37,938 nt of DNA from Dehalococcoidia bacterium (GTDB lineage Bacteria > Chloroflexota > Dehalococcoidia > UBA2979), in NCBI GenBank assembly GCA_040880625.1, contig JBBDIC010000152.1, forward strand, positions 9,239-47,176, read 5' to 3'. Shown here piece by piece: positions 1 to 32,919 of this stretch. Position numbers and translations under genes: made by a program. The notes under the pieces were generated by a model. It was not told the DNA's origin. It worked only from the letters and a program-made list of their open reading frames with translations, and ran no database searches. The first letter of the stretch is position 1. Each line of letters starts with the position of its first letter.

Positions 1-1772
1 CCGCTGGTGATCGCCCGCAGTTCGTGATCCTGTCACGCGAGCGCGCGAAGCTCTCCTACCGTTGGAAGCCCGCTGTGGTGTCACGGCTCGCGATCGGCGG
101 CGGGCGCGTCGCCCTCGACGACGATGGAGAACCGCTGCGGCGGCTCTGCTGTCCCGCGTGTTACGCGGCGCTCTTCGACGGTGAGGGACTGCCGCTCGAC
201 TTGCAGGCGCTCTCGCGGAAAAAGCACGCGTGCGACGCGTGCGGGTCGCCGCTCTGGCAGGCGGACCGCGCCGGGCCGCGGCGATTCCCGCTCGCCGACT
301 ACGTCGCTCGGCGCATGCCGGGCGCTTTCGATCTGCTGATCGTGGACGAGCAGCACGAGTACAAGGCGCGCGGCTCGGCGCAGGGGATCGCGGCGGGGGC
401 GCTCGCTGAGGCCTGCGGACGGACGCTAACGCTCACCGGCACGCTGATGGGCGGTTACGCCTCGACGCTCTTCTATCTGCTGTGGCGGTTCTCGCCCGAG
501 GTGCGGGAGGAGTTCGGCTACGGTGACGAAGGTCGCTGGATCTCGCGCTACGGGATCGTCGAGCGCATCACGCGTCGCGGAGACGACGAGGCCATTGAGG
601 ACGGGCGGTCCAGCCGCCGGCGTGGCTATCGCACGCGCACCGTTGAGAAGCCGGGCGTCTCCCCCGCGGTGCTGTTCCACCTCATCGGGAACACGGTGTT
701 CCTACGCCTGGCGGACGTCGCCTCCGATCTGCCGGAGTACCGCGAAGAAGTGCGGCTGATCGCGATGGACCGCGGCGACGGTCAGGGGCCGTCGCAGGCA
801 TCGTCCTACCGGCAACTGTCGGATGCGTTGCACGCGGCCGTCATGGCCGCATTGGCTGCGGGCACGCGGCGACTGCTAGCCGCATATCTGCAGACGCTGC
901 TGGCTTACCCGGACGCGTGCACCAACGGCGAGACGGTGATCGACCCGGGGAGCGGCGAGGTGATCGCCTCGGCGCCACCGCTGCCCAGCGACCGTCTCTA
1001 CCCGAAGGAACAAGCGCTGCTCGACCTCGTGCAGGAGGAGCGCAGTCGCGGGCGACGTGTGCTCCTCTACATCACGCACACGCAGAGCCGCGACATTGCG
1101 CCGCGACTCGAACGCGTGCTCGGTGCGGTGGGGATCCGCGTCGCCACGCTCAAAGCGGACACGGTTGCCACCGACGCCCGCGAGGACTGGGTGAATCGGA
1201 AAGTGCGCGAGGGCATCGATGTGCTGCTTGTACATCCCCGGCTCGTCCAGACCGGGCTCGACCTGATCGACTTTCCGACGATCGTTTGGTACGAGGTCGA
1301 GTACTCCGTGTACACGATGCGGCAGGCGAGCCGTCGCTCGTGGCGCATCGGCCAACGACATCCGGTACGGGTGATCTACTTCGCATACCGCGCCACGCTT
1401 CAGGCGCAGGCTTTGCAACTGACCGCGAAGAAGCTGCAGGCGTCGCTCGCGGTGGAAGGCGACCTCGTCGAAGAGGGCCTCGCCGCCCATGGGACCGATG
1501 GCGATGACTTGTTGCTCACGCTCGCCCGCAGCCTCTCGGCTCAGGACGAAGTGAACGAGGAGTCGCTCGAAGGGCTGTTCGCGGAGGTACGGGCGGTCGC
1601 CGATGCAGCGGAGGACGCGCTCGACCGCGAGGAGACCGAGGTGCCTGCGCCCATCGGGATGTCAGTGGACGCTGCCGTAATCGAGCTAGACCTCACACCC
1701 GTGGTCGATCCCGTCGGGGTGCTGATCCGGGCCGAGGAGGTCCGCGAGGGAGGGCAAATGCGACTGTTGTAG
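1..1772 (+). CDS. SNF2-family DExH helicase (5' end cut by window edge) with inserted Cys4 zinc ribbon
   Basis: The frame is open from nt 3 to the left edge, with no stop before the GTG at 24. Motifs read in the translation are: DExH box LLIVDEQHEYK, SNF2 motif III LTLTGTLMGG, helicase-C block RVLLYITHTQS...VATLKADT, and motif VI QASRRSWRIGQRHPVRVIYF. A CxxC...CxxC ribbon (CCPACYAALF...CDACGSPLW) lies upstream of the DExH box. The C-terminal tail is acidic. Confidence 0.75.
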   Translation, partial: AGDRPQFVILSRERAKLSYRWKPAVVSRLAIGGGRVALDDDGEPLRRLCCPACYAALFDGEGLPLDLQALSRKKHACDACGSPLWQADRAGPRRFPLADYVARRMPGAFDLLIVDEQHEYKARGSAQGIAAGALAEACGRTLTLTGTLMGGYASTLFYLLWRFSPEVREEFGYGDEGRWISRYGIVERITRRGDDEAIEDGRSSRRRGYRTRTVEKPGVSPAVLFHLIGNTVFLRLADVASDLPEYREEVRLIAMDRGDGQGPSQASSYRQLSDALHAAVMAALAAGTRRLLAAYLQTLLAYPDACTNGETVIDPGSGEVIASAPPLPSDRLYPKEQALLDLVQEERSRGRRVLLYITHTQSRDIAPRLERVLGAVGIRVATLKADTVATDAREDWVNRKVREGIDVLLVHPRLVQTGLDLIDFPTIVWYEVEYSVYTMRQASRRSWRIGQRHPVRVIYFAYRATLQAQALQLTAKKLQASLAVEGDLVEEGLAAHGTDGDDLLLTLARSLSAQDEVNEESLEGLFAEVRAVADAAEDALDREETEVPAPIGMSVDAAVIELDLTPVVDPVGVLIRAEEVREGGQMRLL

Positions 1773-1780
1773 AGGCAGTT

Positions 1781-1823
1781 CGGAGTCGGGTGCCTGGTCA
1801 AATGTCCGGGCCGCCCGACTCCG
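1781..1823. terminator. Hairpin between convergent genes (possible bidirectional terminator)
   Basis: cggagtcggg (1781-1790) is the perfect reverse complement of cccgactccg (1814-1823). The hairpin starts 8 nt after the helicase TAG and ends 5 nt from the TAA of the minus-strand 42-codon ORF. A T/C-rich run (ccctcttacttctt) follows on the + strand. The 23-nt loop weakens the call. Confidence 0.35.
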
Positions 1824-1828
1824 CCCTC

Positions 1829-1957
1829 TTACTTCTTGCCGCCGCGGCGTACCGTCTCGGTGACCGTTGTCGCCGGGCGGCGGCCAGCCTCGCGTGCTGG
1901 GACGAACTGCCCAGTGCGAGCATCGCGGACCACCTTGCCTGTTTCCTTTGATGCCAT
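1829..1957 (-). CDS. Small basic protein, 42 aa (MASKETGKVVRDARTGQFVPAREAGRRPATTVTETVRRGGKK)
   Basis: This ORF is below the 60-aa cut-off of the track and was translated by hand. It starts with ATG at 1957 preceded by AAAGGAATCGGACG (AAGGA Shine-Dalgarno) and ends with TAA at 1829-1831. The composition is protein-like, unlike the Arg-rich 72-aa track ORF in another frame. It is convergent with the helicase and divergent from the R-M promoter. Confidence 0.4.
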   Translation of the reverse strand: MASKETGKVVRDARTGQFVPAREAGRRPATTVTETVRRGGKK

Positions 1958-2025
1958 CGTCCGATTCCTTTCTGGAGGTCGAGTCCTCCGTTTCTTTGTG
2001 GCCCAGATAGTAGCACGGGTACGTG

Positions 2026-2054
2026 TTGACTTATTGCGTCAGCACGGTTAATAT
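2026..2054 (+). promoter_or_regulatory. Sigma-70/SigA-type promoter predicted to give a leaderless mRNA for the R-M operon
   Basis: TTGACT (2026-2031), an exact 17-nt spacer, then TAATAT (2049-2054). The A of the ATG at 2061 lies 7 nt after the -10 box, which is the expected transcription start. No Shine-Dalgarno is present. This is the most AT-rich spot of the local region. Confidence 0.55.
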
Positions 2055-2060
2055 CTGCGT

Positions 2061-2657
2061 ATGAATATTGCGGACGTCGCAGAGATTCGTCAAGGCATGG
2101 CCCTGGCTGGCCGCGCGGCCGGAGCCCGGCCCGGCGACTGGCCGCTCCGCGTCGTCGAGAGCTCGGACGTCGTCGACGATCGCGTCAGCCTCCAGGGGTT
2201 ACGGGAGATCGAAGTCCTACGGGACGGACGCAGCGAGGCGCACCTGCTGCGCCCGTTCGACATCCTGGTGACGGCGCGATCGCAGGCGATAAAGGTGGCA
2301 CTCGTGCCGCCCGAGGTCAGTCGCACCGTCGCGTCATCAACACTGCTCGTCGTCCGCACCCCGGATCCAGGCAGCGGCCTGTCGCACTACCTGTGGTACT
2401 ACCTCACTTCGACGCGCGGGCGTGCAGAGATGGCTTCGAGGCTGACCGCTACGGCACTGCCGACGCTCTCCGCGAAGGCGCTCGGCGACGTGCCGACCGC
2501 GATCCCCCCGCTTGCCGAGCTCCGGCGGCTCGTGGACGTAATAGAGACGTCCGAAGCGACCCACGCGGCGGCGTTTGAGGCCGCGCGCATTCGACACCAT
2601 GTCCTTCGGGACGCCATCATCGCCGCGGTCGCGGCACAGGCCGGCGAAAGGAACTAG
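2061..2657 (+). CDS. Half-size (single target-recognition-domain) type I specificity-subunit-like protein
   Basis: The protein is 198 aa. It has an HsdS TRD-like layout: an N-terminal 'IADVAEIRQGMA' box, 'LLRPFDILVTARSQ', 'SSTLLVVRT', 'YLWYYLTSTRG' and 'LPTLSAKALGDVPTAIPPLAE', followed by a C-terminal helical conserved region. Its stop lies 2 nt before the hsdM ATG. Confidence 0.7.
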   Translation: MNIADVAEIRQGMALAGRAAGARPGDWPLRVVESSDVVDDRVSLQGLREIEVLRDGRSEAHLLRPFDILVTARSQAIKVALVPPEVSRTVASSTLLVVRTPDPGSGLSHYLWYYLTSTRGRAEMASRLTATALPTLSAKALGDVPTAIPPLAELRRLVDVIETSEATHAAAFEAARIRHHVLRDAIIAAVAAQAGERN

Positions 2658-2659
2658 CG

Positions 2660-4192
2660 ATGCCGCTCACGACCGAGGAACTTGAGTCGAAGCTCTGGCG
2701 CGCGGCGGACATCCTGCGCGGGCAGATCGATTCGAGTGACTACAAGAACTACATCTTTTCGATGCTCTTCCTGAAGCGGCTCTCCGATCGCTTCGCTGAG
2801 GAGGTCGACCGCGCGGTGGCCGCCGGCGTGCCTCGTGAAGTCGCCGAGCGCGAGCCCGATGAGCATGAATTCTTCGTACCCCCTGACGCGCGTTGGAGTG
2901 CGATCGTCCGCGAGGCAATGAACCTTGGCGAGGTGCTGAATCGTGCGAGCGCCGAGATCGAGGAGGCGAATGCGCCTCGGCTCGACGGCGTGCTGCGGAA
3001 CACGAACTGGAACGACGAGTCGAAGCTCGGCAGCCCGGTCAGCCGCGACCGCATCATCGGCAGCCTGCTGCGGCACTTCGACGCAGTGGACCTGCGCGAC
3101 GAGAACCTGACGCGCGATGGCGAGCAGGGCGCGGTGAACGTCCTGGGCGACTCGTACGAGTACCTGATCCGTGAGTTCGCCGACGACGCCGGCAAGAAGG
3201 GCGGCGAGTTCTACACGCCGCGCTCCGTCGTCCGGCTGATCGTGGAGTTGCTCGAGCCGCGCGAGGGGATGCGCATCTGCGACCCGACCGCGGGGTCCGC
3301 GGGTATGCTGATCTACACGGCGCAGTACGTCGCGGAGCACGGCGGCAACCCGCGCAACCTCGTGCTGCACGGGCAGGAGCGGAACCTCGGCACGCTCGCC
3401 ATCGGCAAACTGAACCTGCTGCTGCACGGCCTGCGCGCCGCACGCTACGAGGGTGGCGACGTGATCGAGGAACCCCGTTTGATGGACGAGCGCGGGCGGC
3501 TGATGTCCTACGACCGTGTGGTCGCGAATCCGCCGTTCAGCCTGAAGGAATGGGGACACGACTTCGCGCCGAACGACCCGCACCACCGCTTTGACCGCTA
3601 CGGCGCGATCCCGCCGAAGACGAAGGGCGACCTGGCCTTCCTGCAGCACATGCTCGCCGTCACCAACCCGGACGGGATGGTGGGCGTAGTGATGCCGCAC
3701 GGGATTCTCTTCCGCGGAGGCGCAGAGGGGACGATCCGCAAGGGGATCGTGGAGGCCGACCTGTTCGAGGCGGTGATCGGCCTGACGCCCAACCTGTTCT
3801 ATGGGGCGAGCATTCCAGTGGCGATCTGCATCCTGAACAAGAAGAAGCGGCCGGAACGGCGTGGCAAGGTGTTGTTCATCGACGCGGCGCAGCCGGGCTA
3901 CTTCCGCGCCGGCAAGGCGCAGAACCACCTGGACCGCGAGCACGTGACGAAGATCGTGGAGGCGTTCCGCGCCTTCGAGGAGATCGAGCAGTTCGCCCAC
4001 GTCGCCGACATCGATGAGATCCGGGCCAATGACTTCAACTTGAACATCTCGCGCTACGTCGACACGACGCAGCACGAGGAGGTCCCGAGCGTCGAGGACG
4101 CCCTCGCCCGCCTGCGCGAGGCGGAGGCACGACGCGACGACGCAGCAGCGCGCATGGACGCGCTGCTCGTGGAGCTCGGTTATGCCCGCTAG
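2660..4192 (+). CDS. hsdM: Type I restriction-modification N6-adenine DNA methyltransferase subunit
   Basis: N-terminal HsdM domain (LWRAADILRGQIDSSDYKNYIFSMLFLKRLSD), AdoMet motif I ICDPTAGSAGML, and catalytic motif IV VVANPPFS. The C-terminal part reads ANDFNLNISRYVD. Confidence 0.95.
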   Translation: MPLTTEELESKLWRAADILRGQIDSSDYKNYIFSMLFLKRLSDRFAEEVDRAVAAGVPREVAEREPDEHEFFVPPDARWSAIVREAMNLGEVLNRASAEIEEANAPRLDGVLRNTNWNDESKLGSPVSRDRIIGSLLRHFDAVDLRDENLTRDGEQGAVNVLGDSYEYLIREFADDAGKKGGEFYTPRSVVRLIVELLEPREGMRICDPTAGSAGMLIYTAQYVAEHGGNPRNLVLHGQERNLGTLAIGKLNLLLHGLRAARYEGGDVIEEPRLMDERGRLMSYDRVVANPPFSLKEWGHDFAPNDPHHRFDRYGAIPPKTKGDLAFLQHMLAVTNPDGMVGVVMPHGILFRGGAEGTIRKGIVEADLFEAVIGLTPNLFYGASIPVAICILNKKKRPERRGKVLFIDAAQPGYFRAGKAQNHLDREHVTKIVEAFRAFEEIEQFAHVADIDEIRANDFNLNISRYVDTTQHEEVPSVEDALARLREAEARRDDAAARMDALLVELGYAR

Positions 4193-5423
4193 CGTGCCCG
4201 AGGGATGGCGGCGTCTAGCCATCGAAGAGATGGCGTGTCAGCGGACGGAGAAGGTTCGCCCGGCTCGCGATGATCAGACGCCATATGTAGCCCTTGAACA
4301 CATCCCGAACGGCGGAGGCCGGCTACTCGGCATGGACATTGCGGGCTCTGCGATGAGCCACAAGACGCGCTTCTCGGCAGGCGACACGCTATTCGGGAAG
4401 TTGCGACCGAACCTTCGGAAGGTCGTTCGAGCGCAGTTCGATGGCGTTTGTTCCACCGACATCCTTGCGGTCGCAGCCAAGAATGGCACGGACGCCGCGT
4501 TCCTCTACCAGCTCCTGGCCAGCGACGTTGCTCATCGGCATGTGATGGGAGACATCACCGGCACCAAGATGCCACGCACGTCATGGGAGCGGCTGGCCGA
4601 CCTTTCAGTGTCGTGTCCATCCCTCCCCGAACAGCGCGCCATCGCCGCCGTCCTCGACGCCGTCGACGACACCATCGAGCGCACCGAGGCGGTGATCGCG
4701 GCGACCGAGGATCTGCGTCGCTCCCTCCTCCACGAGCTGCTCACACGCGGCGTCCCCGGCATGCATTCGGAGTGGAAGCACGTCCCTGGCCTCGGCACCG
4801 TACCGGCGTGCTGGGAGGTGACGACTCTGGGGGAGTGCCTCGAAAGGATCGAGGCGGGCAGAAGCCCGCTGTGTGAGAGTCGTCCCGCACGCGGCGACGA
4901 ATGGGGAGTCCTCAAAGTCAGCAGTGTCAGCTGGGGTGAGTTCCGCCCGAACGAAAACAAGGCGCTTCTGCCCGAAGCCAAACCGGATTCTCGCTACGAG
5001 GTCAAGCCAGGCGACCTCCTGCTGAGCCGTGCGAACACCCCAGACTTGGTCGGGAGGGCTGTTCTGGTCCGGAACACGCCCTCCAGACTTCTGTTGAGCG
5101 ACAAGACCCTGCGGCTCCTCCCGAAGTCTGCCCGGACTAACACGGAGTTCCTCTTGCTGGCCCTCGGTACGCCGTCGGCCCGAACCCAGATTTCCGGCGC
5201 CGCATCCGGCAGCAGCCGGTCGATGTTCAACGTCTCGCAAGAGGCTCTGCGACTAGTGCGTTTCGCACTCCCATCTCTAGATGAACAGCGCTGTATCGCG
5301 GAAGCACTCCAAGCAGTCGCTGCGGCACAAGGCGCCAAAGAAGACGAGATCGCGGAGGCCAAGATGCTGAAGGCAACGCTGGCCGAGGGGTTGCTGAGCG
5401 GTCGCGTCCGCGTGGCCATCTAG
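4182..5423 (+). CDS. hsdS: Type I restriction-modification specificity subunit (two TRDs)
   Basis: The protein is 413 aa with two TRDs separated by the central conserved helix (LPEQRAIAAVLDAVDDTIERTEAVIAATEDLRRSLLHELLTRG). A second conserved region follows (LPSLDEQRCIAEAL...LKATLAEGLLSGRVRV). It overlaps the hsdM end by 11 nt. Confidence 0.9.
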   Translation: MPASVPEGWRRLAIEEMACQRTEKVRPARDDQTPYVALEHIPNGGGRLLGMDIAGSAMSHKTRFSAGDTLFGKLRPNLRKVVRAQFDGVCSTDILAVAAKNGTDAAFLYQLLASDVAHRHVMGDITGTKMPRTSWERLADLSVSCPSLPEQRAIAAVLDAVDDTIERTEAVIAATEDLRRSLLHELLTRGVPGMHSEWKHVPGLGTVPACWEVTTLGECLERIEAGRSPLCESRPARGDEWGVLKVSSVSWGEFRPNENKALLPEAKPDSRYEVKPGDLLLSRANTPDLVGRAVLVRNTPSRLLLSDKTLRLLPKSARTNTEFLLLALGTPSARTQISGAASGSSRSMFNVSQEALRLVRFALPSLDEQRCIAEALQAVAAAQGAKEDEIAEAKMLKATLAEGLLSGRVRVAI

Positions 5424-5432
5424 GAGACTCGA

Positions 5433-6428
5433 ATGGCAGGCCGACGGATCTACTCAGTTCAAGCCGAGCTGCTCCAAAAGTCGAAGGAGGCAGCCCTCAA
5501 TGCTGTTCAGACGTTCAACAATCCATTGACGACCTTCAAGACGGAGACCTTCATCGTGCTCATGGTGGTCGCATGGACGTATCTGCTCCACGCGCACTAT
5601 CGACGAAAAGGTATCGAGTATCGCTACTTCACGCAGGGGAAGAACCGACGCCGCTTCGATCGGACGAAGTCGGGTGCCTTCAAGCACTGGGAGTTGGAGC
5701 GATGCCTCAACGAGAAGAAATGCCCGCTGGACGCGGCTACCCAAGCGAATCTACGGTTCCTGATCGGCCTCAGGCACGAGGTCGAGCATCACATGTCGAC
5801 ACAGTTGGATGACCACCTAGGAGGGCGCTATCTCGCCTGCTGTTTGAACTACGAAACGTGGGTCACCCAGTTGTTCGGCATGGAGCATAGTTTGGGTGCC
5901 TCGCTTGCTCTGGCGCTGCAGTTCCGCGACTTAACTGCGAATCCTGAACCTACGGATGCCCTGAACCCACTCCCCGCCAACGTTTCGCGTTACATCGAGG
6001 AGTTCGATGCGGCGGTTGGTGACGAAGAGTTTGAATCCCCGCGCTTCTCGTACCGAATCCTCTTCACACCCAAACTCGCCAACCGACGTGGTCAGGCCGA
6101 TCGTGTTATCGAGTTCGTGCCTGCGGACTCCGAGTTAGCTCAAGTCATCAACGCGGAGTACGTGGTTCTCAAAGAGACCGAGCGCCCGAAATTCCGACCG
6201 AAGGACGTGGTCCAGGCGATGACCGAGGAAGGCTTCTCGCGCTTCCGCGTACATGAGCACACCGAGCTCTGGAAGCAGCTTGATGCCAAGAATCCTACCA
6301 ACGGTTATGGGGTGGACGTGTCAGGGCAGTGGTTCTGGTATGAGCGCTGGCTTGAGCGTGTCAGGCGCGAGTGCCGGGAGCACCCAGAACGGTTCGCCGC
6401 ACTTCCTGATTTGGGGCTTAGTGCATGA
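5433..6428 (+). CDS. R-M-embedded protein of unknown function, HEPN-like (Rx4H); resembles DUF3644-type proteins from memory
   Basis: The protein is 331 aa. An AGGAG overlaps the hsdS stop 9 nt upstream, and its TGA overlaps the hsdR ATG (ATGA at 6425-6428). The N-terminus reads SKEAALNAVQTFNNPLTTFKTETFIVLMVVAWTYLLHAHY, and LIGLRHEVEHH (R114-x4-H119) fits the HEPN Rx4-6H motif. My hand counts give lower G+C (about 57-62%) than the hsdM sample (about 75%). Confidence 0.55.
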   Translation: MAGRRIYSVQAELLQKSKEAALNAVQTFNNPLTTFKTETFIVLMVVAWTYLLHAHYRRKGIEYRYFTQGKNRRRFDRTKSGAFKHWELERCLNEKKCPLDAATQANLRFLIGLRHEVEHHMSTQLDDHLGGRYLACCLNYETWVTQLFGMEHSLGASLALALQFRDLTANPEPTDALNPLPANVSRYIEEFDAAVGDEEFESPRFSYRILFTPKLANRRGQADRVIEFVPADSELAQVINAEYVVLKETERPKFRPKDVVQAMTEEGFSRFRVHEHTELWKQLDAKNPTNGYGVDVSGQWFWYERWLERVRRECREHPERFAALPDLGLSA

Positions 6429-9400
6429 CCATCTCCGACCGCCTCAACGAACTGAACCACGCAGAGACCCCCGCGCGCGAACTTCTCGAGCGGCTGGGAT
6501 ACGCCTACGTGCCTCGCGAAGTGTTGGCAGCGGAACGCGAGGACGAGCGCGGCGTGCTGCTCACGGGCCGGCTGACGGCGGCTCTGATGCGCCTCAACGA
6601 GTGGATGACCGAGGACCAGGCGCAGCGCGTCATCTTCAACCTCCAGCACATCGACGCCACCGGCCTCGCTCGCAACCAGCGCATCCACGAGTACCTGGTC
6701 TACGGCATGCCGCTCACGATCGACCGTGGCGGCCGGCAGGAGACGCCCACGGTCCGCTTCTTCGACTTCGACCATCCGGAGCCGGGTGTTGGCCTCAATG
6801 AGTACGTCGTGACCACGCAGTTCCGCGTCCGCCGTGGCAACGAGCGCGGTAGCGACCGGACCAGCGAGGACGACGAGCGTGTGGTGATGCCCGACCTCGT
6901 GCTCTTCGTGAACGGCATCCCGCTCGTCGTGCTGGAGGCCAAGTCGCCGTCCCTCCTCGAAGTGTGGAAGGCGAAGGCGGTGCGCCAGCTGCTCCGCTAC
7001 CAGGAGGCGGGGCCGGAATGGCACGGCACCGGCGCGCCGGATCTCTTCGATACCAACCTGATGTGCGTTGCCCTTTGCGGTGCGGATGCCGCTTACGGAG
7101 CCATCGGCGCGCCGGAGAACGCCTACGCGCAGTGGAAGTCGATCGAGCCATTCACCACGGCGGACTTCGAGCGCCGCTTCGGCGTCCCGCCCGAGGGCCA
7201 GGCGCGCCTCATCGTCGGTCTGCTCAACCCGTCGGTGCTCCTCGACGTCCTGCGCGACTTCGTCGTCTTCGAGCCGGAACGTGGGCGGCTGGTGAAGAAG
7301 ATCCCGCGCTACCAGCAGTACCGCGCCGTCCGCCATGCCATCGCGCGTGTCCTCGACGGTCGCACGCCCTCGGAGCGTGGCGGCGTGGTCTGGCATACGC
7401 AGGGCTCCGGGAAGTCGCTGACAATGCTCTATCTCGCGACGAAGCTGCGGCGCTCACCGGCGCTGCAAAATCCCACGATCGTTGTGGTCACAGACCGCAC
7501 GCAGCTCGACGAACAGATCTCGAAGACCTTCGAGCGCACCGGCTTCCCGAACCCGGAGCGCGCCGACAGCACACGTGACCTTCGTGCGCTGCTCAGCACG
7601 AACAACGGCCGCACGGTCATGACCACGATCCAGAAGTTCGAGGACGCGCTTGGCGGCCCTGCAGGTGACCGCGATCATCTCAATGACGCCGACAACGTCG
7701 TAGTGATGATCGACGAGGCGCACCGCACCCAGTACGGCCGCCTCGCTGCCAAGATGCGTGCCGCACTGCCGAAGGCAACCTTCATCGGCTTCACCGGCAC
7801 GCCGATCGACCAGGGCTTCAAGCGCACCACGCTCGGTACGTTCGGCGAGCTCATCGACTCGTACACGATCCCGCAATCCGTGGAGGACGGCGCCACCGTC
7901 CCCATCTACTACGAAGCGCGCCTCCCGGAGCTGCACGTCGAAGGCCCGGAGACTCTCGACCGCCTCTTCGACACGCTCTTCCGAGATGAACCGGAGGAGA
8001 CCCGCGCCGAAATCCGTCGCCGCTACGCGAACAAGGAGACGATCGCGGAGGCGGCAAAGCGCATCGAAGCCGTAGCGCTGGACATCGCGGAGCACTACCG
8101 GACGAAGGTGCAGCCCAACGGCTTCAAGGCACAGGTCGTGGCGCCGAGCCGCGCGGCCGCTGTGCGGTACGCGGAGCACCTCGTGACGTTCGGGCTCTCC
8201 GCGTACCCAGTGATCACGACGACGAACAACGATGGCCCCGAGTTCCGGTGGGCGCGCGAACTGGACGAGAACCAGATCGTCAACGCGTTCATCGATCCTG
8301 ACGGCGAGCCGCAGATCCTCGTGGTCGTCGACAAGCTCATTACCGGCTTCGATGCGCCCGTGGAGCAAGTGCTCTACCTCGACCGTTCGATCCGCGAACA
8401 CACGTTGCTTCAAGCGATTGCCCGCGTGAACCGCCGTTACTCGCGCACGAAGGACGGCGTCACGACGGAGAAGACCTACGGCCTCGTCGTCGACTACCAC
8501 GGCGTTTCGCGCGAACTGGAGAGCGCCCTCGCCATCTTCGACCGCGGCGATATCGCTGATGCACTCACCGAGCTACCCGAGGATCCCGGCCCCGTTATCC
8601 AGGCGACCGCCGATCGTGCGGAGGCGCACTTCCGCGGGCTCAACCTCGACGACGCTTGGGCGTGCGTCCATCGCTTCGACGCAGACACCGGTACCGAGGG
8701 CGACTACAAAGCCGACCTCTATGAGCTGTTCGACCGCGACTACCGCGACTTCTCAACGCTGATGGATCGGTTCCTGCCGGAGCCGGCCGCGATCGCCTAC
8801 CTCGATCGCCTGCGACGCCTCACCGTCATCCGGTCCTACGCGCGCGCCCTGTTCCTCCGAGAGCGCGCCGACATCGACTGGACCGCCGTCGGCGCGAAAG
8901 TAAAGCAGCTCCTCGATTCACGGATCGACGCGACGGTGCGCGAACTGATGGCGCCGGTGTCTATCCTCGACCAGGACTTTGAGCAGAAAATCGCGCGTCT
9001 CCCTCACGACGAAGCACGCGCCTCGGTGATGGAGCATGCCATCCGAGCCCAGATCAAGGAGCGCGTCGATGAGAACCCGGTGTTCTACGAACGCCTTTCG
9101 GAAGCCCTCGAACGGATCATCCGCGAACTCCGTGCACGCCTCATCGATGCCGCCGAGGGCTGCAAGCGCCTGGCTGTGCTGCGTTCTCAGATCAGCCGTG
9201 AGGAGGCGATCGCAGCGGAGCACGGCCTCACGCCGGTTTCGTTCGCCGTCTACGGCCTCCTCTCTGGGGACACGGTCGGCGGTGAAGCCAATGCCGGCGC
9301 GCGACAGGTGCGTGACGAAAGCGACGGCTACGTCCCCGAGTTCGACGAGCGGCTGAAGGAGGTCGCGCGCGATATCGATGCAGTCCTCCAGGAGCACCGC

Positions 9401-9553
9401 GCCATCATCGACTGGCGCGAGAACCTCGACGTGCAGCGCGAGATGCGGCGCGACATCAAACGCCTCCTCCGCGACACAGGCCGCTATGCCGAAGAAGAAC
9501 TCGACGAGCTCGTGCGGCAGGTCGTGGAGGTCGCCCGGAGGCGCCTCACATGA
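6425..9553 (+). CDS. hsdR: Type I restriction enzyme endonuclease/translocase subunit
   Basis: The protein is 1042 aa. N-terminal PD-(D/E)xK nuclease motif (PDLVLFVNGIPLVVLEAKSP), helicase motif I WHTQGSGKSLTM, motif II DEAH (VVMIDEAHRTQ), TGTPI, and motif VI QAIARVNR. Confidence 0.95.
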   Translation: MTISDRLNELNHAETPARELLERLGYAYVPREVLAAEREDERGVLLTGRLTAALMRLNEWMTEDQAQRVIFNLQHIDATGLARNQRIHEYLVYGMPLTIDRGGRQETPTVRFFDFDHPEPGVGLNEYVVTTQFRVRRGNERGSDRTSEDDERVVMPDLVLFVNGIPLVVLEAKSPSLLEVWKAKAVRQLLRYQEAGPEWHGTGAPDLFDTNLMCVALCGADAAYGAIGAPENAYAQWKSIEPFTTADFERRFGVPPEGQARLIVGLLNPSVLLDVLRDFVVFEPERGRLVKKIPRYQQYRAVRHAIARVLDGRTPSERGGVVWHTQGSGKSLTMLYLATKLRRSPALQNPTIVVVTDRTQLDEQISKTFERTGFPNPERADSTRDLRALLSTNNGRTVMTTIQKFEDALGGPAGDRDHLNDADNVVVMIDEAHRTQYGRLAAKMRAALPKATFIGFTGTPIDQGFKRTTLGTFGELIDSYTIPQSVEDGATVPIYYEARLPELHVEGPETLDRLFDTLFRDEPEETRAEIRRRYANKETIAEAAKRIEAVALDIAEHYRTKVQPNGFKAQVVAPSRAAAVRYAEHLVTFGLSAYPVITTTNNDGPEFRWARELDENQIVNAFIDPDGEPQILVVVDKLITGFDAPVEQVLYLDRSIREHTLLQAIARVNRRYSRTKDGVTTEKTYGLVVDYHGVSRELESALAIFDRGDIADALTELPEDPGPVIQATADRAEAHFRGLNLDDAWACVHRFDADTGTEGDYKADLYELFDRDYRDFSTLMDRFLPEPAAIAYLDRLRRLTVIRSYARALFLRERADIDWTAVGAKVKQLLDSRIDATVRELMAPVSILDQDFEQKIARLPHDEARASVMEHAIRAQIKERVDENPVFYERLSEALERIIRELRARLIDAAEGCKRLAVLRSQISREEAIAAEHGLTPVSFAVYGLLSGDTVGGEANAGARQVRDESDGYVPEFDERLKEVARDIDAVLQEHRAIIDWRENLDVQREMRRDIKRLLRDTGRYAEEELDELVRQVVEVARRRLT

Positions 9554-10281
9554 CCGAGTGCGGTGAGGTGCAGCTCGGCGATGCGCGCATCCAGTACCGC
9601 GTCGTCCGCAGTCCGAAGCGCCACAAGACGATCGAGATCACCGTTGATGAACTGGGCCTGGTCACCATCGCCGCCCCGATGGGCACCACATCGGACCGTC
9701 TCGAAGAAACCGTGCGCCGGCGAGCGAAGTGGATTGTGTTACACGACGGCGCGGCATCACCGAGCGCGCCGACGCGGCGATTTGTGAGCGGCGAGTCGTT
9801 CCCGTATCTCGGGCGTTCCGTGCGTCTTACCGTGCGCCCCACCGACGATCAGGACGTCTCCATCCGGTTCCACCACTGGCAGTTCGACCTCGACGTCCCG
9901 CGGCGCCTGCATGGCGACGAACGCCAGATGAAGGTGCGCGCCGCCGTGGCGGCGTGGTACCGGGAGCGCGCAGCACTGAAGCTCCCGGCGCGCGTCGACC
10001 GCATCGCCGGCCTCCTCGGTGTACAGCCCAAAGCCGTCCTCATCCGTGATCAGCGCATCCGCTGGGCTAGTTGTTCTGCCGATGGGACACTTCGTTTCAA
10101 CTGGCGCGCTGTGATGGCCCCGCCAGCACTTATTGACTACGTCGTGGCACATGAACTCGCCCATTTGCGGATCCGTGCCCATAGCGCCGAGTACTGGGCC
10201 GTCGTTGCTCAGGCGATTCCGGACTACCGCATGCGGCGAGAGCGACTGAGAGAAGTTGGCGCTGTCCTGGACATCAGTTGA
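9550..10281 (+). CDS. YgjP-like/COG1451 (DUF45, M48-like) HExxH metal-dependent hydrolase
   Basis: The protein is 243 aa. Its ATG overlaps the hsdR TGA (ATGA at 9550-9553). The zinc motif VVAHELAHL is preceded by RWASCS...LRFNWR, which is typical of this family. Confidence 0.8.
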   Translation: MTECGEVQLGDARIQYRVVRSPKRHKTIEITVDELGLVTIAAPMGTTSDRLEETVRRRAKWIVLHDGAASPSAPTRRFVSGESFPYLGRSVRLTVRPTDDQDVSIRFHHWQFDLDVPRRLHGDERQMKVRAAVAAWYRERAALKLPARVDRIAGLLGVQPKAVLIRDQRIRWASCSADGTLRFNWRAVMAPPALIDYVVAHELAHLRIRAHSAEYWAVVAQAIPDYRMRRERLREVGAVLDIS

Positions 10282-10613
10282 TCTGCCTCGCGTCGTCGGG
10301 TCGCTCCAGATGATGGACAAGAAGTGCGACGGACCTCGGCGTCGGGGTGCTGCGCCTGCAGCTCGGTGAGGCGGGCGGCCACCTCGGCTGTGGTCAGCCC
10401 CGAGGGGATGACCGCGAGCGGCTCGGTCGGAGCCGCCCCACCTTCGGCCCGTCTCGTCTCGATGCCCGACCGCCATGGCCTCGCGCGCTTCGCGGAGTCG
10501 CTTGGCCCAGCACGGCCAACGCCGGACACGGCACCTGCCAGCCGATCGCGGTGACCTTCGCCGTGAGGTGACAGGCCGCGGGCTTCGGGCACTCCGAACA
10601 CATCTCGTCGGGA

Positions 10614-16205: not shown

Positions 16206-16850
16206 TCAGTCGCCAACGGCCTGCCCCTTCCACGCCGCATCAAAGAACCAGTACTCCAACTCCATCGCGCGGTGGTAGGACTCACGCTCGGCACCGCCGG
16301 CAGGGTCTGCGTCTGCGTACCGATCCAGCAGCGCTTCAATGAGTGACGCCAGCTCCTCAAACTCCTCGGCGGCGTACGTCTGTACCCAGTCGCGGTACGG
16401 CTCCGCCACCTCGCCCACGGCGAGGCGGCGCCCGAGGTACGCATACAGGCGCATGCACGGGGTCATGGCCGCGAGGGTCTCGCCGATGGTGGCACCATTT
16501 CGGACGCGGTCCTCGAGGAAGTCCGTATAGGCAAGGGTGGCGGCGGCAGGCTCGACGTGGTCGAGGTCGATCTCGAGTTCGCCGGCGACACGTCGGTGGA
16601 GCTCGATCTCCTCGAAGACCCCACGGAGCAAGCGATAGAAGGCGTAGAGGCCATCCCGGTCGGGCGCCATCGCGAGGCAGTAGGCGTAGCTGCGCGCGAA
16701 GACTTCGAGGAAGAACGCATCCTGCGCGATGAAGTCACGGTATCGGTCCGCCGGCAGTGTCCCATCGGCAATGCCTCGGAGGAACGGGTGTGCAAGGCAG
16801 CGCGACGCCACCTCATCCGCCTCGCTCCAGAGCATCGCCGAGAGACTCAC
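16206..16850 (-). CDS. tenA: Thiaminase II / aminopyrimidine aminohydrolase (TenA family)
   Basis: LAHPFLRGIADGTLPADRYRDFIAQDAFFLEVFARSYAYCL...ELEYWFFDAAW. The GTG start overlaps the upstream stop (GTGA at 16847-16850). Confidence 0.85.
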   Translation of the reverse strand: MSLSAMLWSEADEVASRCLAHPFLRGIADGTLPADRYRDFIAQDAFFLEVFARSYAYCLAMAPDRDGLYAFYRLLRGVFEEIELHRRVAGELEIDLDHVEPAAATLAYTDFLEDRVRNGATIGETLAAMTPCMRLYAYLGRRLAVGEVAEPYRDWVQTYAAEEFEELASLIEALLDRYADADPAGGAERESYHRAMELEYWFFDAAWKGQAVGD

Positions 16851-17482
16851 GGCTCCACCTCTTCGTGTGAGCCCTGCTCGATCGCCGCCAGGTAGGCAAC
16901 CACCGCGCCGGCCGGGTCCCGAGCACCGAGGACACCCGAGACCACCGCAACCCCGGTCGCCCCCGCCTCGAGGCAGCGAGCAACGCGCTGAGGGGTGATA
17001 CCTCCGATCGCGATCACCGGGACCCGGGCCGCTTCACAGACGGCACGGAGGGCCTCCGTACCCGTCTTCGTGCCTGCCTTGGAGCCAGGCACGAAGACGG
17101 ACCCGAAGACGGCAGCATTGACGCCCGCCTGCTCGGCTCGATGCAAGGCGTCCACGTCGTGTACGGCGGAGGACTGCCAGCGGGGTTCGGGCGGAAGGTG
17201 GTCTGGAAGGGCGGCTTCGGGCCAGTGCACGCCCTGATAGCCCAGGCCCGCAGCAACGTCCGCCGAGCCGTTCAGGATGAGGACGCTTCGAGGGAGACGC
17301 GCCCGCACCGTCCGCGCCAGGGCCTCTAACTGGCCCTCGTCCAGCGTCTTCGCCCGGAGCTGGACGGCCACTCTCGGATCCGTCGCGACCGGCGCGAGCG
17401 CCTCAAGGGCGTCCAGCAACTGCACCTCGGTACCCGCGTAGCCGAGGTCAGCGACGACGATGAGCCGAGGTGCGCCGATCAC
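16847..17482 (-). CDS. ThiE/TenI-family protein (second copy; thiazole tautomerase TenI-like or thiamine-phosphate synthase paralog)
   Basis: TIM-barrel ThiE-like sequence ([12 protein letters not shown]...[21 protein letters not shown]...[11 protein letters not shown]...[11 protein letters not shown]...GVAVVSGV). The start was trimmed to the GTG at 17482, which overlaps the thiG TGA. The 400-aa track ORF is an artefactual extension through thiG. A canonical thiE exists at 18645-19301. Confidence 0.75.
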
Positions 17483-18339
17483 GGCCACGCCGCATTCCGG
17501 GCCCCGATACGCCCCTCCATCGGTGACGAGGGGTCGGCATAGAAGCGCTTCGGCATGCGCCCCGCGAGGAAGGCCTCGCGGCCTGCGACCGCCGCGTGCC
17601 GGACCGCGCGCGCCATGCGCACGGGGTCTCGCGCCTGCGCCACGGCCGTGTTCAGCAACACCGCGTCGCAGCCCAGCTCGAAGGCCTGCGTGATGTCCGA
17701 CGCCGTACCGATCCCGGCGTCCACGATCACGGGGATGGATACCAGGGAGCGGATCAGCTCGAAGTTGTGGGGGTTGCGGATGCCGAGTCCGGAACCGATG
17801 GGTGCCGCCAGCGGCATCACCGCGACGCATCCGACATCCTGAAGCCGGCGCGCGATGACGGGGTCGTCGTTCGTGTAGGGAAGCACGTGGAAGCCCCGCT
17901 GGACGAGTGCGGCGGCAGCGGTCACCGTCTCGATCGGATCGGGGAGGAGCGTCTCTTCGTCGGCGATGACTTCGAGCTTCAGCAGGCTCGTGCCCAACGC
18001 CTCGCGGGCGAGCTCCGCCGTCAGAACCGCTTCCTGTGCGGTGAAGCAACCGGCGGTGTTGGGAAGCACCTGGTACCCGTGGTCAGTGAGCAACTCGTAT
18101 AGGTTCTCCCCATCGCGGGAGCGCAGGTCGACGCGACGGACCGCCATCGTGACCAGCTCCGTCCCTGAGGCGGCCAGCGCGTCGAGCATCGTCTGAGTGC
18201 TCGGGTAGCGTGCGGAGCCGAGGATGACCCGAGAGCTGAACTCAACCTCACCGAGCTTCCAGGTGTCGTCATCGGGCGCGGAGGGAGGTGCGCCAGTCGT
18301 CGTGGCAGGCGTGTCGGGCTCGTTCCCCGGGTTCGTCAT
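17479..18339 (-). CDS. thiG: Thiazole synthase
   Basis: [21 protein letters not shown]...LKLEVI...LLPDPIETV...[12 protein letters not shown]...[18 protein letters not shown]...[13 protein letters not shown]. The ATG at 18339 lies 1 nt after the thiS TGA, with AAGGAGG inside the thiS end. Confidence 0.95.
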
Positions 18340-18340
18340 G

Positions 18341-18562
18341 TCAGCCTCCTTGGATGGGACGGACGATCTCGACCTCGTCGCCCGGCTCCACGTGAGTCGT
18401 CGCCCAGTCTGAGCGATGGACCACCTCGCCGTTCCTTGCCACCGCAACACCGCGTCCGAGGGCGGGGCTCACGAGGTCGTCGACGCTCGTGCCGGACCCG
18501 AGTTCACGCGGCTCGCCGTTCACGGTCACTCTGACCGTTGCCTGGATCCTGTCGCCAGTCAC
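18341..18562 (-). CDS. thiS: Sulfur-carrier protein ThiS
   Basis: The protein is 73 aa and ends in the diagnostic ...[10 protein letters not shown]. The core reads [10 protein letters not shown]...[10 protein letters not shown]. The GTG start at 18562 is preceded by GGAGG at 7-nt spacing. Confidence 0.8.
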
Positions 18563-18644: not shown

Positions 18645-19301
18645 TCATCGAGCCCGCCCGGCCAACAAAGACTCGATCGCATCCATGCATTCGCGGGCCG
18701 CGGCCTCGATGTCGTCAGCGGCGACGACGGCCGACACGACGGCGATGCCGTGGGCGCCGGCCGCCAGCACCTCCGGGATACGCTCGGCCGTGATGCTGCC
18801 GATGGCGACGACCGGCACCGGACATGCGGCGCAGATGCGGGCGAGCGTCTCCAGCCCCATGTCAGGAGCGGGGTTCCGCTTCGTCCGGGTGCCGTAGATC
18901 GGGCCGACGCCCAGGTAGTCGATGTCCGACTGCCACACGCGCTCCGCCTCCTCGAACGAGTTGGCCGTGCCACCGATCGTCGCGTCGGGGCCGAGGATCG
19001 CGCGAGCCGTGGCGACGTCGAGGTCGTGACGTCCGAGATGGACGGCCCCTGCGCCGACGCTGCGCGCCACGTCGACGCGGTCGTCGACGATCAACAGGGC
19101 GTCGTGTTTCTCGGCTTCTTCGAGGATCTGGGCGGCCACGTCGATCCATTGCCGCGTGGTCCACGGGCGCTTCTCGCGGAACTGCACGGCGTCGGCGCCA
19201 CCGCGGAACGCCAGTCGCGCGATCTCGAGGTGCGAGTGGCGATCCTGGATCTCTTCGTCGGTGATGACCTGCAGGCGGGGAATCAACCGTCGTGCGCTCA
19301 T
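18645..19301 (-). CDS. thiE: Thiamine-phosphate synthase
   Basis: LQVITDEE...GADAVQFREK...LIVDDRVDVA...GAGAVHLGRHD...IGGTANS...DYLGVGPIYGTRTK...PVVAIGSI...HGIAVVSAV. The ATG at 19301 overlaps the thiD TGA (ATGA). Confidence 0.9.
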   Translation of the reverse strand: MSARRLIPRLQVITDEEIQDRHSHLEIARLAFRGGADAVQFREKRPWTTRQWIDVAAQILEEAEKHDALLIVDDRVDVARSVGAGAVHLGRHDLDVATARAILGPDATIGGTANSFEEAERVWQSDIDYLGVGPIYGTRTKRNPAPDMGLETLARICAACPVPVVAIGSITAERIPEVLAAGAHGIAVVSAVVAADDIEAAARECMDAIESLLAGRAR

Positions 19302-20107
19302 CGGGCGCCCCCTCGGAATGCGAAGAAATGGTCGGTCGGACCAGCACCGGCCCCGAGTGGCAGGCCGTGCCGGATCGCCTCGGTCAGGTAGCGCTTCGCG
19401 GCGCGGACCGCCTCCGGGAGGTCGTCGCCTGAGGCAAGTTGGGTGGCGATCGCCGCGGAGAAGGTGCAACCGGTACCGTGCGTGTTGCGGCTCTCGATCC
19501 ACTCGCCGTCGATCACCTCGGCACCATCCGCGGTCACCAGCACGTCCGTCCCCGGACGCTCCTTGAGATGCCCTCCCTTCACGATGACAGCGCGGGGGCC
19601 GCACTCCAGGATCCGACGCCCGGCCTCCGCAGCATCAGCCAGGGTCTTGATCTGCATGCCTGCCAGCAGCTGAGCCTCGTGGATGTTCGGGGTGACGAGC
19701 AGGGCCAGGGGCAGGAGCCGCCTGCGGAGGGCCTCGATCGCGTCATCGGTGAGGAGCGTGAAGCTGGACTTCGAGATCATGACGGGGTCAAGGACGTAAC
19801 GTGGAGCGCCGTGACGTTCCAGGCAGTCTGCCACGACCTCGACGCGCTCGCGGTCAGCAAGCATGCCGCTCTTCATCGCGTCGACCTTGAAGTCGTCAAA
19901 GAGCGCCGCGAACTGCGCCTCGATGATCTCCCGGGGCAGCGCGAGCGCCGCGGTGACCGCCTGCGTGTTCTGCGCGGTGACCGAGGTGAGGACGGACAGG
20001 CCGTACCCGCCGTTGGCGGAGATGGTCTTGAGGTCAGCCTGTATCCCCGCGCCCGCGCTACTGTCGGAGCCGGCGACGGTCAGTACAACCGGTAGGGTCG
20101 AAGCCAT
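19298..20107 (-). CDS. thiD: Hydroxymethylpyrimidine / phosphomethylpyrimidine kinase
   Basis: [21 protein letters not shown]...[10 protein letters not shown]...AMKSGML...VLDPVM...LVTPNIHEA...VIVKGGHL...[12 protein letters not shown]. The start was trimmed to the ATG at 20107, preceded by GTGGGGGCATC. Confidence 0.95.
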
Positions 20108-20214
20108 GATGCCCCCACGGTCCCGCACCTGATGCGAGCACACGAGGCCGATGGCCAACGTCCTTAGTCGGGCTCAATCCGATGGGGGATGGTGTGAATC
20201 TGGGCGGAGTCTCG

Positions 20215-20310
20215 CCGCAGTGCACATCCCTCCGCCGGCATTACCCGGATCAGGTGTACGGGTGTCATCTCAGGCCGGACCACGTCCGACCACCCCGTGT
20301 GCTAACTGCA
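20215..20310 (-). promoter_or_regulatory. TPP (THI-box) riboswitch upstream of thiD
   Basis: The minus strand reads CACACGGGGTGGTCGGACGTGGTCCGGCCTGAGATGACACCCGTACACCTGATCCGGGTAATGCCGGCGGAGGGATGTG. This contains the universal CUGAGA, ACCUGAUC.GG.UAAU.CC.GCG and AGGGA elements. A 113-nt leader to thiD lacks an obvious U-tract terminator. A CCCCCA run in the leader could pair with the GGGGG Shine-Dalgarno. Confidence 0.9.
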
Positions 20311-30874: not shown

Positions 30875-30897
30875 GTTTGATCCTTCCAGGTTCCGGG

Positions 30898-31995: not shown

Positions 31996-31996
31996 G

Positions 31997-32721: not shown

Positions 32722-32890
32722 CTCGAACGCGCGGGGCCGGACAGCCCGCGTGTCTGTCACCCGTCTCCCGCGGGCTCGACACCGGCCTGGTTCGGCGACC
32801 TGGCTGACCGTCTCAGGGACGGATCACAGTTGCGGGACAGCGCCGGGTTCTCACCGGACTTCGCGAATCAAACCGTCAGCGGGACTTTAG
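32722..32890 (-). promoter_or_regulatory. Cobalamin (B12) riboswitch
   Basis: The minus strand reads ...GAAGTCCGGTGAGAACCCGGCGCTGTCCCGCAACTGTGA...GGTCAGCCAGGTCGCCGAACCAGGCC.... This covers the GGUG.GAA.CC...CCCGCAACUGU core and a B12-box-like segment. It is followed by the terminator hairpin and the cob/btu operon. Confidence 0.8.
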
Positions 32891-32919
32891 AGGTTGCACA
32901 GGACCCGAGCAACCGATCC

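Follow-up and report, generated by a model that had tools for sequence, protein, structure and literature searches.

A DUF3644-family HEPN gene carried between hsdS and hsdR in a type I restriction/modification operon of a Dehalococcoidia genome

What is a gene for a predicted RNase doing in the middle of a type I restriction/modification (R/M) operon: is it controlled by the restriction complex, or is it carried and expressed along with it? The question is raised by a 331-codon open reading frame (ORF) between hsdS and hsdR at positions 5433-6428 (+) of a 37,938-nucleotide stretch of Dehalococcoidia DNA (GenBank assembly GCA_040880625.1, contig JBBDIC010000152.1, positions 9,239 to 47,176), hereafter called the window. 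The gene encodes a DUF3644-family protein that combines a HEPN domain at the N-terminus with a conserved domain at the C-terminus. We consider it probable that the protein is an autonomous abortive-infection effector that travels as cargo of the R/M operon. An earlier note on this DNA had instead proposed an effector that is held latent by the R/M complex.

The family and its association with R/M systems have been known since 2013, and it is already listed in PADLOC as the “embedded” candidate PDC-S19; the locus is an example of a known pattern. Anantharaman et al. equated DUF3644 with the EC042_2821 HEPN family, which “occurs in R-M system operons” (PMC3710099). PDC-S19 is a single-gene PADLOC candidate drawn from genes embedded in BREX, DISARM, and type I R/M systems (bioRxiv 10.1101/2024.01.29.577857).

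The gene and its operon

The ORF was confirmed in the ORF listing and in the raw sequence, so that the claim of a 331-aa frame inside a type I R/M operon stands. A chance ORF is ruled out because the protein matches Pfam DUF3644 with E = 9e-53 and finds 3860 proteins at E ≤ 1e-5 in a database clustered at 90%. The block in which it lies contains the following features.

2026-2054 (+): promoter-like site TTGACT-17-TAATAT, a match to the sigma-70 consensus only and the sole such site near the head of the block
2061-2657 (+): half-size HsdS-like subunit, 198 aa, one target-recognition domain, first gene of the operon (PADLOC Specificity_I, E = 8e-12)
2660-4192 (+): hsdM, type I methyltransferase, 510 aa (Pfam N6_Mtase, 5e-99, and HsdM_N, 2e-25; PADLOC MTase_I, 8e-146)
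4182-5423 (+): full-length hsdS, 413 aa (Pfam Methylase_S in two stretches; PADLOC Specificity_I, 5e-53)
5422-5426 (+): AGGAG, Shine-Dalgarno-like element, overlapping the hsdS stop codon TAG (5421-5423) and separated by a 6-nt spacer from the ATG at 5433
5433-6428 (+): DUF3644/PDC-S19 gene, 331 aa, N-terminal HEPN and conserved C-terminal domain (Pfam PF12358, PADLOC PDLC04948)
6425-9553 (+): hsdR, restriction/translocase subunit, 1042 aa (Pfam HSDR_N, SWI2_SNF2, ResIII, T1R_D3-like, and T1RH-like_C; TIGR00348, 1e-150)
9550-10281 (+): YgjP-like zinc metallopeptidase, 243 aa, last gene of the block (Pfam PF01863, 9e-55)

Read from the sequence, the hsdS stop is followed after 9 nt by the start of the DUF3644 gene, and the same stop-to-start spacing is found in locus L132, which is 72% identical. 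At the other end, the TGA of the gene (6426-6428) and the ATG of hsdR (6425-6427) overlap by 4 nt as ATGA. All junctions described in the earlier note, i.e., the AGGAG over the hsdS stop, the 9-nt gap, and the overlap with hsdR, are thus present, and they imply co-transcription of the DUF3644 gene with hsdS and hsdR as well as translational coupling to them.

The remaining junctions are equally tight, with a 2-nt gap between the half-S gene and hsdM, an 11-nt overlap of hsdM and hsdS, and a 4-nt overlap of the hsdR stop with the YgjP-like gene; terminators would not fit between the six genes. A terminator-like hairpin (1973-1990) precedes the promoter-like site at 2026-2054. Because of this packing and the lone promoter-like site between the hairpin and the half-S gene, the layout fits a single six-gene operon spanning 2061-10281. 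The type I R/M operon around the DUF3644 gene is apparently intact. A consensus scan found no sigma-70-like promoter within hsdS, although in a Chloroflexota genome an internal promoter could escape such a scan. The statement that the gene cannot be expressed independently of the restriction genes was therefore too strong.

The idea of a composite six-gene system fared better, as the order half-S, hsdM, hsdS, DUF3644, hsdR, and YgjP recurs in loci of relatives. Half-S homologues with 49-66% identity also hold the first position in L009, L026, L030, L037, and L052, and because this position is kept, the half-S gene belongs to the conserved make-up of this type I family and is no remnant. A YgjP-like gene also follows hsdR in ten loci (L005, L009, L026, L030, L031, L037, L132, L133, L136, and L137). 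No PADLOC or NCBIfam model matched the YgjP-like protein of the window, and a literature search for YgjP (DUF45, COG1451) in connection with type I R/M systems yielded nothing usable.

Family membership, HEPN motif, and the C-terminal domain

The match to PF12358 scores 179 bits against a cut-off of 27.6 (E = 9e-53) and aligns residues 12-193 with positions 1-181 of the 183-position profile. Over nearly its whole length (residues 3-319 on positions 5-322 of 325), the protein also matches the PADLOC model PDLC04948 for PDC-S19 with E = 1.5e-146, and six further PDC-S19 models match it as well. No NCBIfam model was found for it. An NCBI protein of a Dehalococcoidia metagenome-assembled genome (MAG), named “DUF3644 domain-containing protein,” is 100% identical to it. 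The family is large: at 50% identity, it still comprises 1299 clusters with E ≤ 1e-3. All 53 relatives in our alignment match PF12358 too. The profile hidden Markov model (HMM) search thus bears out the suspicion of a HEPN-family member.

Within the protein, three features carry the functional interpretation.

5466-6011 (+): HEPN domain, aa 12-193 (Pfam boundaries; AlphaFold model)
5748-5789 (+): predicted catalytic motif N106...R114-H-E-V-E-H119 (conservation in 53 relatives)
6018-6392 (+): C-terminal domain, aa ~196-320, conserved family-wide and probably EC042_2821_CTD

The string LIGLRHEVEHH, which had been read as a HEPN Rx4-6H motif, was confirmed, with the R114 codon at 5772-5774 and the H119 codon at 5787-5789. 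Among the 53 relatives, which are 24-55% identical to the window protein, the only invariant columns are N106, R114, and H119; E118 is conserved in 48 of the 53, and N, H, or D occupies position 115. This gives N-x7-R-[NHD]-x-I-E-H as the motif of the family, which is the classic HEPN RNxxxH.

An AlphaFold run on close relatives alone gave a predicted local distance difference test score (pLDDT) of 70 with a blurred C-terminal half and was replaced by a model built on the diverse 53-relative alignment (mean pLDDT 89, predicted template modeling score 0.72). In the HEPN domain, this model has helices at residues 9-28, 36-58, 101-120, and 130-148 and a beta insertion at about aa 64-85. Foldseek searches, run with the whole protein as query, ranked the HEPN protein AF_0298 (2hsb) first in the PDB, with a probability of 0.97, a target-normalized template modeling (TM) score of 0.69, and a root-mean-square deviation of 4.3 Å. 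HEPN, HepT, or MtlR structures made up 22 of the top 50 PDB matches; listed among the matches are HepT (6m6w, 7bxo, 5yep, 8xeh, 8yuf, and 7ae8) as well as ST0689, TM0613, and MtlR (6kcr). Searching PDB sequences with a profile uncovered no solved structure of a relative; the single match, ATP6V1FNB (E = 0.044), is noise. HEPN structures therefore rank best in the fold comparison that had been proposed, with weak scores (E > 0.4), and the fold evidence taken alone is consistent but weak. Combined with the HMM match and the invariant motif, it makes the HEPN assignment secure.

The EC042_2821 family has been described as carrying a C-terminal domain of ~180 aa with a restriction endonuclease (REase) fold, EC042_2821_CTD, and in some members an N-terminal winged helix-turn-helix (wHTH) (PMC3710099). 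Relatives of about 400 aa with an extra N-terminus of ~90 residues also occur in the family examined here. The C-terminal part of our model consists of strands at 209-213 and 226-230, a helix at 234-242, and a helix-helix-beta hairpin-helix unit at 256-316. Profiles of the window-like and the distant subgroup align over the C-terminal domain with an hhalign probability of 99.7% (E = 2e-25). Pfam PF18740 (EC042_2821 REase-like) is matched by three of the 53 relatives (best E = 1.4e-4); of these, P0238 of the distant subgroup reaches 18.4 bits, below the cut-off of 24.9; the window protein itself has no match to PF18740. The C-terminal half is probably the family domain described previously.

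Short matches in BFVD (63-97 aligned columns) were small helix-turn-helix and excisionase proteins, none of them significant, and we infer that they fall on the last ~70 residues, i.e., the 256-316 unit. The domain may be either REase-like or winged-helix-like. Candidate acidic and basic residues show loose conservation (D223 in 41/53, K247 in 43/53, and E248 in 32/53). A canonical PD-(D/E)xK site was considered and rejected, as D223, E227, K247, and E248 are kept in 60-81% of relatives and stand out of ExK register. A role in sensing or in nucleic acid binding is more likely for the domain than a second nuclease activity.

Genomic context, cargo, and base composition

Gene neighborhoods were surveyed in 47 loci from GTDB species representatives and in 80 metagenome loci, and flanks were counted as readable when at least 3 kb was available on both sides. 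The metagenome search, made with a narrower alignment, returned relatives of 49-69% identity, so that the census covers the nearer half of the family. In the 38 GTDB loci with both flanks, the gene was embedded in six, i.e., preceded by hsdM/S and followed by hsdR, all in one orientation (L005, L009, L026, L030, L031, and L037), had a type I gene nearby in four, and had none in 28. The corresponding numbers for the 17 metagenome loci with both flanks were eight embedded, four adjacent to type I genes, and five with none. Pooled, 14 of 55 loci place the gene between hsdM/S and hsdR, eight have type I genes near, and 33 are without, a figure that is an upper bound because type I genes were detected by tblastn with the window's own proteins. 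Counting each side of the metagenome loci separately gives 15 of 39 with hsdR downstream and 22 of 52 with hsdM/S upstream. The enrichment between hsdM/S and hsdR is strong, as the earlier note had expected.

Pfam scans of the two ORFs on each side of the GTDB genes agree with the embedded and stand-alone counts. Methylase_S (eight times) and N6_Mtase (four times) were found upstream, and HSDR_N (six times) and YgjP-like (four times) downstream; the other flanking ORFs belong to diverse families, with few transposase, PIN, or Phd matches. In most metagenome loci, the flanking HsdM is just 26-42% identical to that of the window, and the host systems are therefore different type I families. The closest relatives, at 69-72% identity (L052, and P0002 and P0003 in L132-L137), keep the hsdM-hsdS-DUF3644-hsdR layout, with YgjP after hsdR wherever the contig extends that far, and both L132 and L133 keep the junctions with the 9-nt gap and the 4-nt overlap.

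Plasmids provided 27 matching records. In four of the four copies whose annotation was read, the gene stands alone beside ParB, DUF3768, VapBC, or an integrase. Phage genomes gave almost no matches to the DUF3644 family. On a neighbor-joining tree of 60 sequences of known context, at least nine changes between embedded and stand-alone are needed, as opposed to ~20 (minimum 14) with shuffled labels. Genomic context is therefore heritable within clades yet has been switched repeatedly.

The position between the hsd genes is also used by others. RhuM lies between hsdM and hsdR in three related loci (L109 7213-8208, L119 6386-7411, and L120 3065-4063), and the same stretch holds a RhuM-Fic fusion in L080 (7062-8060), a GmrSD-type enzyme in L109 (4044-5825), and a reverse transcriptase together with a Schlafen/AlbA_2-ATPase protein in L081 (4793-7716); a protein similar to the latter is found between hsdM and hsdR in L106 (7118-8569). 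These extra genes occur on either side of the DUF3644 gene. Such gene types have already been reported inside type I R/M operons (PMC3710099 Table 1; Payne et al., bioRxiv 10.1101/2024.01.29.577857), and the cargo found here matches the “guilt-by-embedding” picture of Payne et al. The hsdM-hsdR stretch is a general cargo site for accessory defense genes, and since unrelated cargo occupies it, a place between hsdS and hsdR alone implies no physical coupling.

Other inhabitants of this stretch are less readily named. Two recurrent cargo proteins have no Pfam match, one at L119 3938-4759 (also in L090 and L120) and one at L119 5730-6386. A 307-312-aa protein with weak zinc-ribbon matches sits between hsdS and the DUF3644 gene in L026 (6956-7876) and L030 (6948-7883), whose operons are in other respects like that of the window, and between hsdM and hsdS there is a DUF4238 gene in L030 and a DUF2442 gene in L026. 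Two small ORFs (38 aa and 128-136 aa) separate the DUF3644 gene from hsdR in L135-L137. In L135, which encodes the 72% identical P0002, the R/M-HEPN operon adjoins a CBASS-like set at 1-3546 (SMODS cyclase, TIR-SAVED effector, and ThiF/E1-like protein). The DUF3644 homologue of L044 (8001-10406) is split, with residues 9-139 at 8001-8393 and residues 138-314 at 9870-10406; the ~1.5-kb insertion between them contains a 451-aa ORF and is probably an insertion sequence that disrupts the gene. The homologues in L032, L040, and L047 look frameshifted.

The base composition of the gene sets it apart from its neighbors. Its G+C content is 57.4%, compared with 66.3% for hsdM, 65.9% for hsdR, 68.3% for thiG, and 67.7% for the window, and it is the G+C minimum among all 996-nt windows of the 37.9-kb sequence (mean 0.676, standard deviation 0.026). 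The deficit sits mostly at third codon positions (0.705 versus 0.85-0.89). The dip reported from hand counts was thus right in direction, while the figures with which it was compared (about 75% for hsdM, about 70% for thiG) overestimate the true values. A G+C content of the DUF3644 gene below that of its flanks recurs in 82 of 87 homologous loci (L001-L131), with a median difference of -7.7 percentage points and an extreme of -27 (L037), and this holds whatever the G+C content of the host or the context. In every embedded locus checked it is the G+C minimum, e.g., 0.36 versus 0.63-0.67 in L037. The gene is compositionally foreign and looks separately acquired, in agreement with the separate cassette that had been suggested. 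Either frequent horizontal transfer or, if the gene is toxic, selection favoring poor codon usage could account for the deficit. Around the gene, a search for terminal or flanking repeats and insertion sequence ends gave only short matches that are probably due to chance, and no tRNA gene that could serve as an integration site was found in the window.

To the published annotation, the census adds that several unrelated type I families share the association with the hsdS-hsdR gap, that this association is heritable within clades and has been lost or gained at least about nine times, and that the DUF3644 gene is almost always compositionally foreign.

Upstream of the operon, an ORF at 24-1772 (+) has a Helicase_C domain and weak similarity to the defense helicases DpdE, ZorD, and BrxH and to the phage DNA helicase phrog_62. 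Only 23 nt separate its start from the edge of the window, and the ORF may be incomplete. Because this ORF at the edge resembles defense helicases, the R/M block may lie at the border of a larger defense island extending past the window. Downstream are ordinary chromosomal genes for an alpha/beta hydrolase, a LuxR-type regulator, and thiamine and cobalamin clusters, the last of these including CobQ, BtuR, and a FecCD/BtuF/ABC transporter.

16206-16850 (-): TenA, thiamine cluster
17479-18450 (-): ThiG, thiamine cluster
19298-20158 (-): ThiD, thiamine cluster
20210-20307 (-): thiamine pyrophosphate riboswitch upstream of the thiamine cluster, 65 bits against a gathering score of 54.3
21190-22341: ThiO-like FAD oxidase
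32757-32862 (-): borderline cobalamin riboswitch, 31.6 bits against 31.5, covering model positions 48-166 only

The cobalamin riboswitch match lies upstream of minus-strand genes for BtuR, FecCD, a periplasmic binding protein, and an ABC transporter (28401-32689), and it overlaps the start of a ketoacyl-synthase-like ORF at 32830-33762 (+).

Possible roles and comparison with known systems

The reading that we prefer, with a probability of about 60%, is that the DUF3644 protein acts autonomously, as a HEPN abortive-infection effector made of a single protein, and that its gene is cargo of the R/M operon, carried and expressed along with it. HEPN RNases are metal-independent, and their Rx4-6H sites pair across a dimer (PMC3710099). 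By analogy, the DUF3644 protein would dimerize, with R114 and H119 forming a composite metal-independent RNase site. It would stay latent until its own C-terminal domain senses an infection cue, which may be a foreign nucleic acid or protein; the activated HEPN domain would then cut tRNA, rRNA, or mRNA and stop translation, with growth arrest or abortive infection as the outcome. Through its place in the operon, the gene would gain co-regulation, stoichiometric low expression, and co-transfer with the R/M genes, adding a second layer of defense, and physical control by HsdMSR would not be needed. That the R/M complex is not required to restrain the family follows from the 33 of 55 loci without type I genes and from the four stand-alone plasmid copies.

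Several points weigh against this reading. The RNase activity, its target, the trigger, and dimerization are all inferred from other HEPN families, and we found no experimental report on PDC-S19 or a close relative in the literature; the sole tested protein that its authors call DUF3644, HEC-08, is not detectably related beyond the motif. No Foldseek match in the PDB has an E-value below 0.4, so the fold rests on ranking, probability, and the Pfam and literature class. The stand-alone counts, as upper bounds, may overstate independence from type I systems. Embedding that is structured by clade and persists down to 69-72% identity is equally expected if embedded members depend on the R/M complex.

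Such dependence is the core of the PrrC-style guard put forward in the earlier note, in which HsdMSR would bind and silence the HEPN protein until an anti-restriction protein (Ocr, ArdA, or Stp-like) frees the RNase. The gene does lie inside a type I locus, comparable to prrC in the EcoprrI locus (PMC12707154; PMC1484252), its translational coupling to hsdS and hsdR would favor co-assembly, and the slot has been used repeatedly in diverse type I families, with embedding inherited within clades. However, the protein has no ABC-ATPase/NTPase domain, which is the activation relay of PrrC (PMC1484252), and prrC has been described as always R/M-linked (PMC3458546), whereas type I genes are absent from 33 of the 55 loci in our census with both flanks readable. 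The solitary plasmid copies, beside partition, toxin-antitoxin, or integrase genes, speak against a guard as well, and with GmrSD, RhuM, Fic, and reverse transcriptase genes between the same hsd genes, position alone is no proof of coupling. We regard this guard as unlikely. Less probable again is a variant confined to the embedded clades, a minimal guardian without an ATPase whose EC042_2821-type C-terminal domain would dock onto HsdR or the M2S1 core and keep the HEPN site inactive, and whose RNase would be freed when a DNA mimic (Ocr or ArdA) inhibits or disassembles the enzyme. If true, it would be a second, independently evolved PrrC-like solution, and the stand-alone copies would be derivatives that sense something else.

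Two further proposals detach the protein from the R/M complex or from catalysis. The protein may be an anti-plasmid or anti-conjugation factor whose HEPN RNase degrades RNA of incoming replicons, e.g., a replication primer, and so complements restriction. This is suggested by Ishtar proteins, in which an N-terminal HEPN domain (assigned by the authors to DUF4145 or DUF3644) is joined to a C-terminal alpha/beta domain and which clear plasmid RP4 with little killing (bioRxiv 10.64898/2026.07.06.735840). The two-domain plan is similar, and homologues beside partition genes on plasmids would fit plasmid-plasmid competition. Yet no DUF3644-family signature string occurs in the Ishtar homologue table, Ishtar proteins have about 210-260 aa as opposed to 331 aa here, and the Ishtar mechanism acting on RNA of the incoming replicon is itself just a hypothesis. 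An Ishtar-family protein from A. baumannii aligns with the window protein over the 14 residues of the RNxxEH motif only (hhalign probability 0.9%), and membership in Ishtar was rejected on these grounds; we give an anti-plasmid role a small chance, somewhat below that of the ATPase-less guardian. The least probable of the alternatives, in our judgment, is a protein with no active nuclease, either a regulatory or nucleic-acid-binding R/M accessory (a non-catalytic, MtlR-like HEPN protein, or a C-terminal winged-helix DNA binder controlling hsd expression or restriction alleviation) or a selfish toxin that stabilizes the cassette. MtlR, a HEPN-fold regulator, is indeed among the Foldseek matches (6kcr), the short BFVD matches inferred for the C-terminal ~70 residues are helix-turn-helix and excisionase proteins, and the C-terminal residues are not strictly conserved. 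Strict invariance of N106, R114, and H119 at 24-55% identity is nevertheless a sign of a maintained catalytic site and not of a scaffold, and the frequent stand-alone copies argue against a regulatory role specific to R/M.

On the preferred reading of an autonomous effector, the locus is a clean natural example of layered immunity, in which a type I R/M system is combined with a translationally coupled predicted RNase effector, and it also carries a conserved half-S gene and a YgjP-like peptidase. As far as the literature was found, this large family is experimentally untouched. Its embedding may mean co-regulation alone or functional coupling, as may that of many embedded defense genes.

Of the known systems, PrrC and RloC are likewise HEPN-superfamily RNases (PMC3710099 Table 1), and PrrC is a second-line defense behind restriction; prrC is embedded in a type Ic hsd locus much as the DUF3644 gene lies between hsdS and hsdR. 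In architecture, an N-terminal ABC-ATPase precedes a C-terminal HEPN domain in PrrC and RloC (for PrrC, PMC1484252 and PMC3458546), whereas the window protein has its HEPN domain, of a different HEPN family, at the N-terminus and matched no ABC or AAA family in Pfam, NCBIfam, and PADLOC scans. Linkage to R/M also differs, being constant for prrC and found in about 25-40% of loci for the DUF3644 family. Membership in PrrC/RloC was rejected for want of the ATPase domain.

HepT (SO_3166) and minimal HEPN proteins like AF_0298 are the best structural matches to the N-terminal domain and have the Rx4H motif in common with it (2hsb, 6m6w, 7bxo, 5yep, and 8xeh; target-normalized TM scores 0.45-0.69, identity 8-13%). 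The window protein is 2.5 times larger than HepT and has an extra beta insertion and a C-terminal domain. It was not assigned to the HepT-MNT systems, as its neighbors are hsdS and hsdR and Pfam finds no nucleotidyltransferase family among the proteins of the operon. HEC-08, embedded in Hma in E. coli ECOR52, is a functional precedent, being an embedded single-gene defense protein with an N-terminal HEPN domain. Its H128, part of the Rx4-6H motif, is needed for phage defense, which is lost in H128A (Payne et al., bioRxiv 10.1101/2024.01.29.577857). HEC-08 has C-terminal zinc-finger repeats, whereas the window protein has no Zn-ribbon match; the two align in the motif region only (hhalign probability 0.3%), HEC-08 has no DUF3644 match in the current Pfam library, and membership was rejected.

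The closest likeness is to the EC042_2821/DUF3644 family itself, with which the window protein shares HMM membership, the Rx4H motif, a HEPN domain followed by a C-terminal domain of ~130-180 aa, and occurrence in R/M operons. It differs from the published description in no essential point; it has no N-terminal wHTH extension, its C-terminal domain does not itself match PF18740, and its source is a Dehalococcoidia MAG instead of a proteobacterium. With PDC-S19, a candidate by virtue of genomic embedding, it has in common the full-length HMM match, the single-gene format, and the place inside a type I R/M operon.

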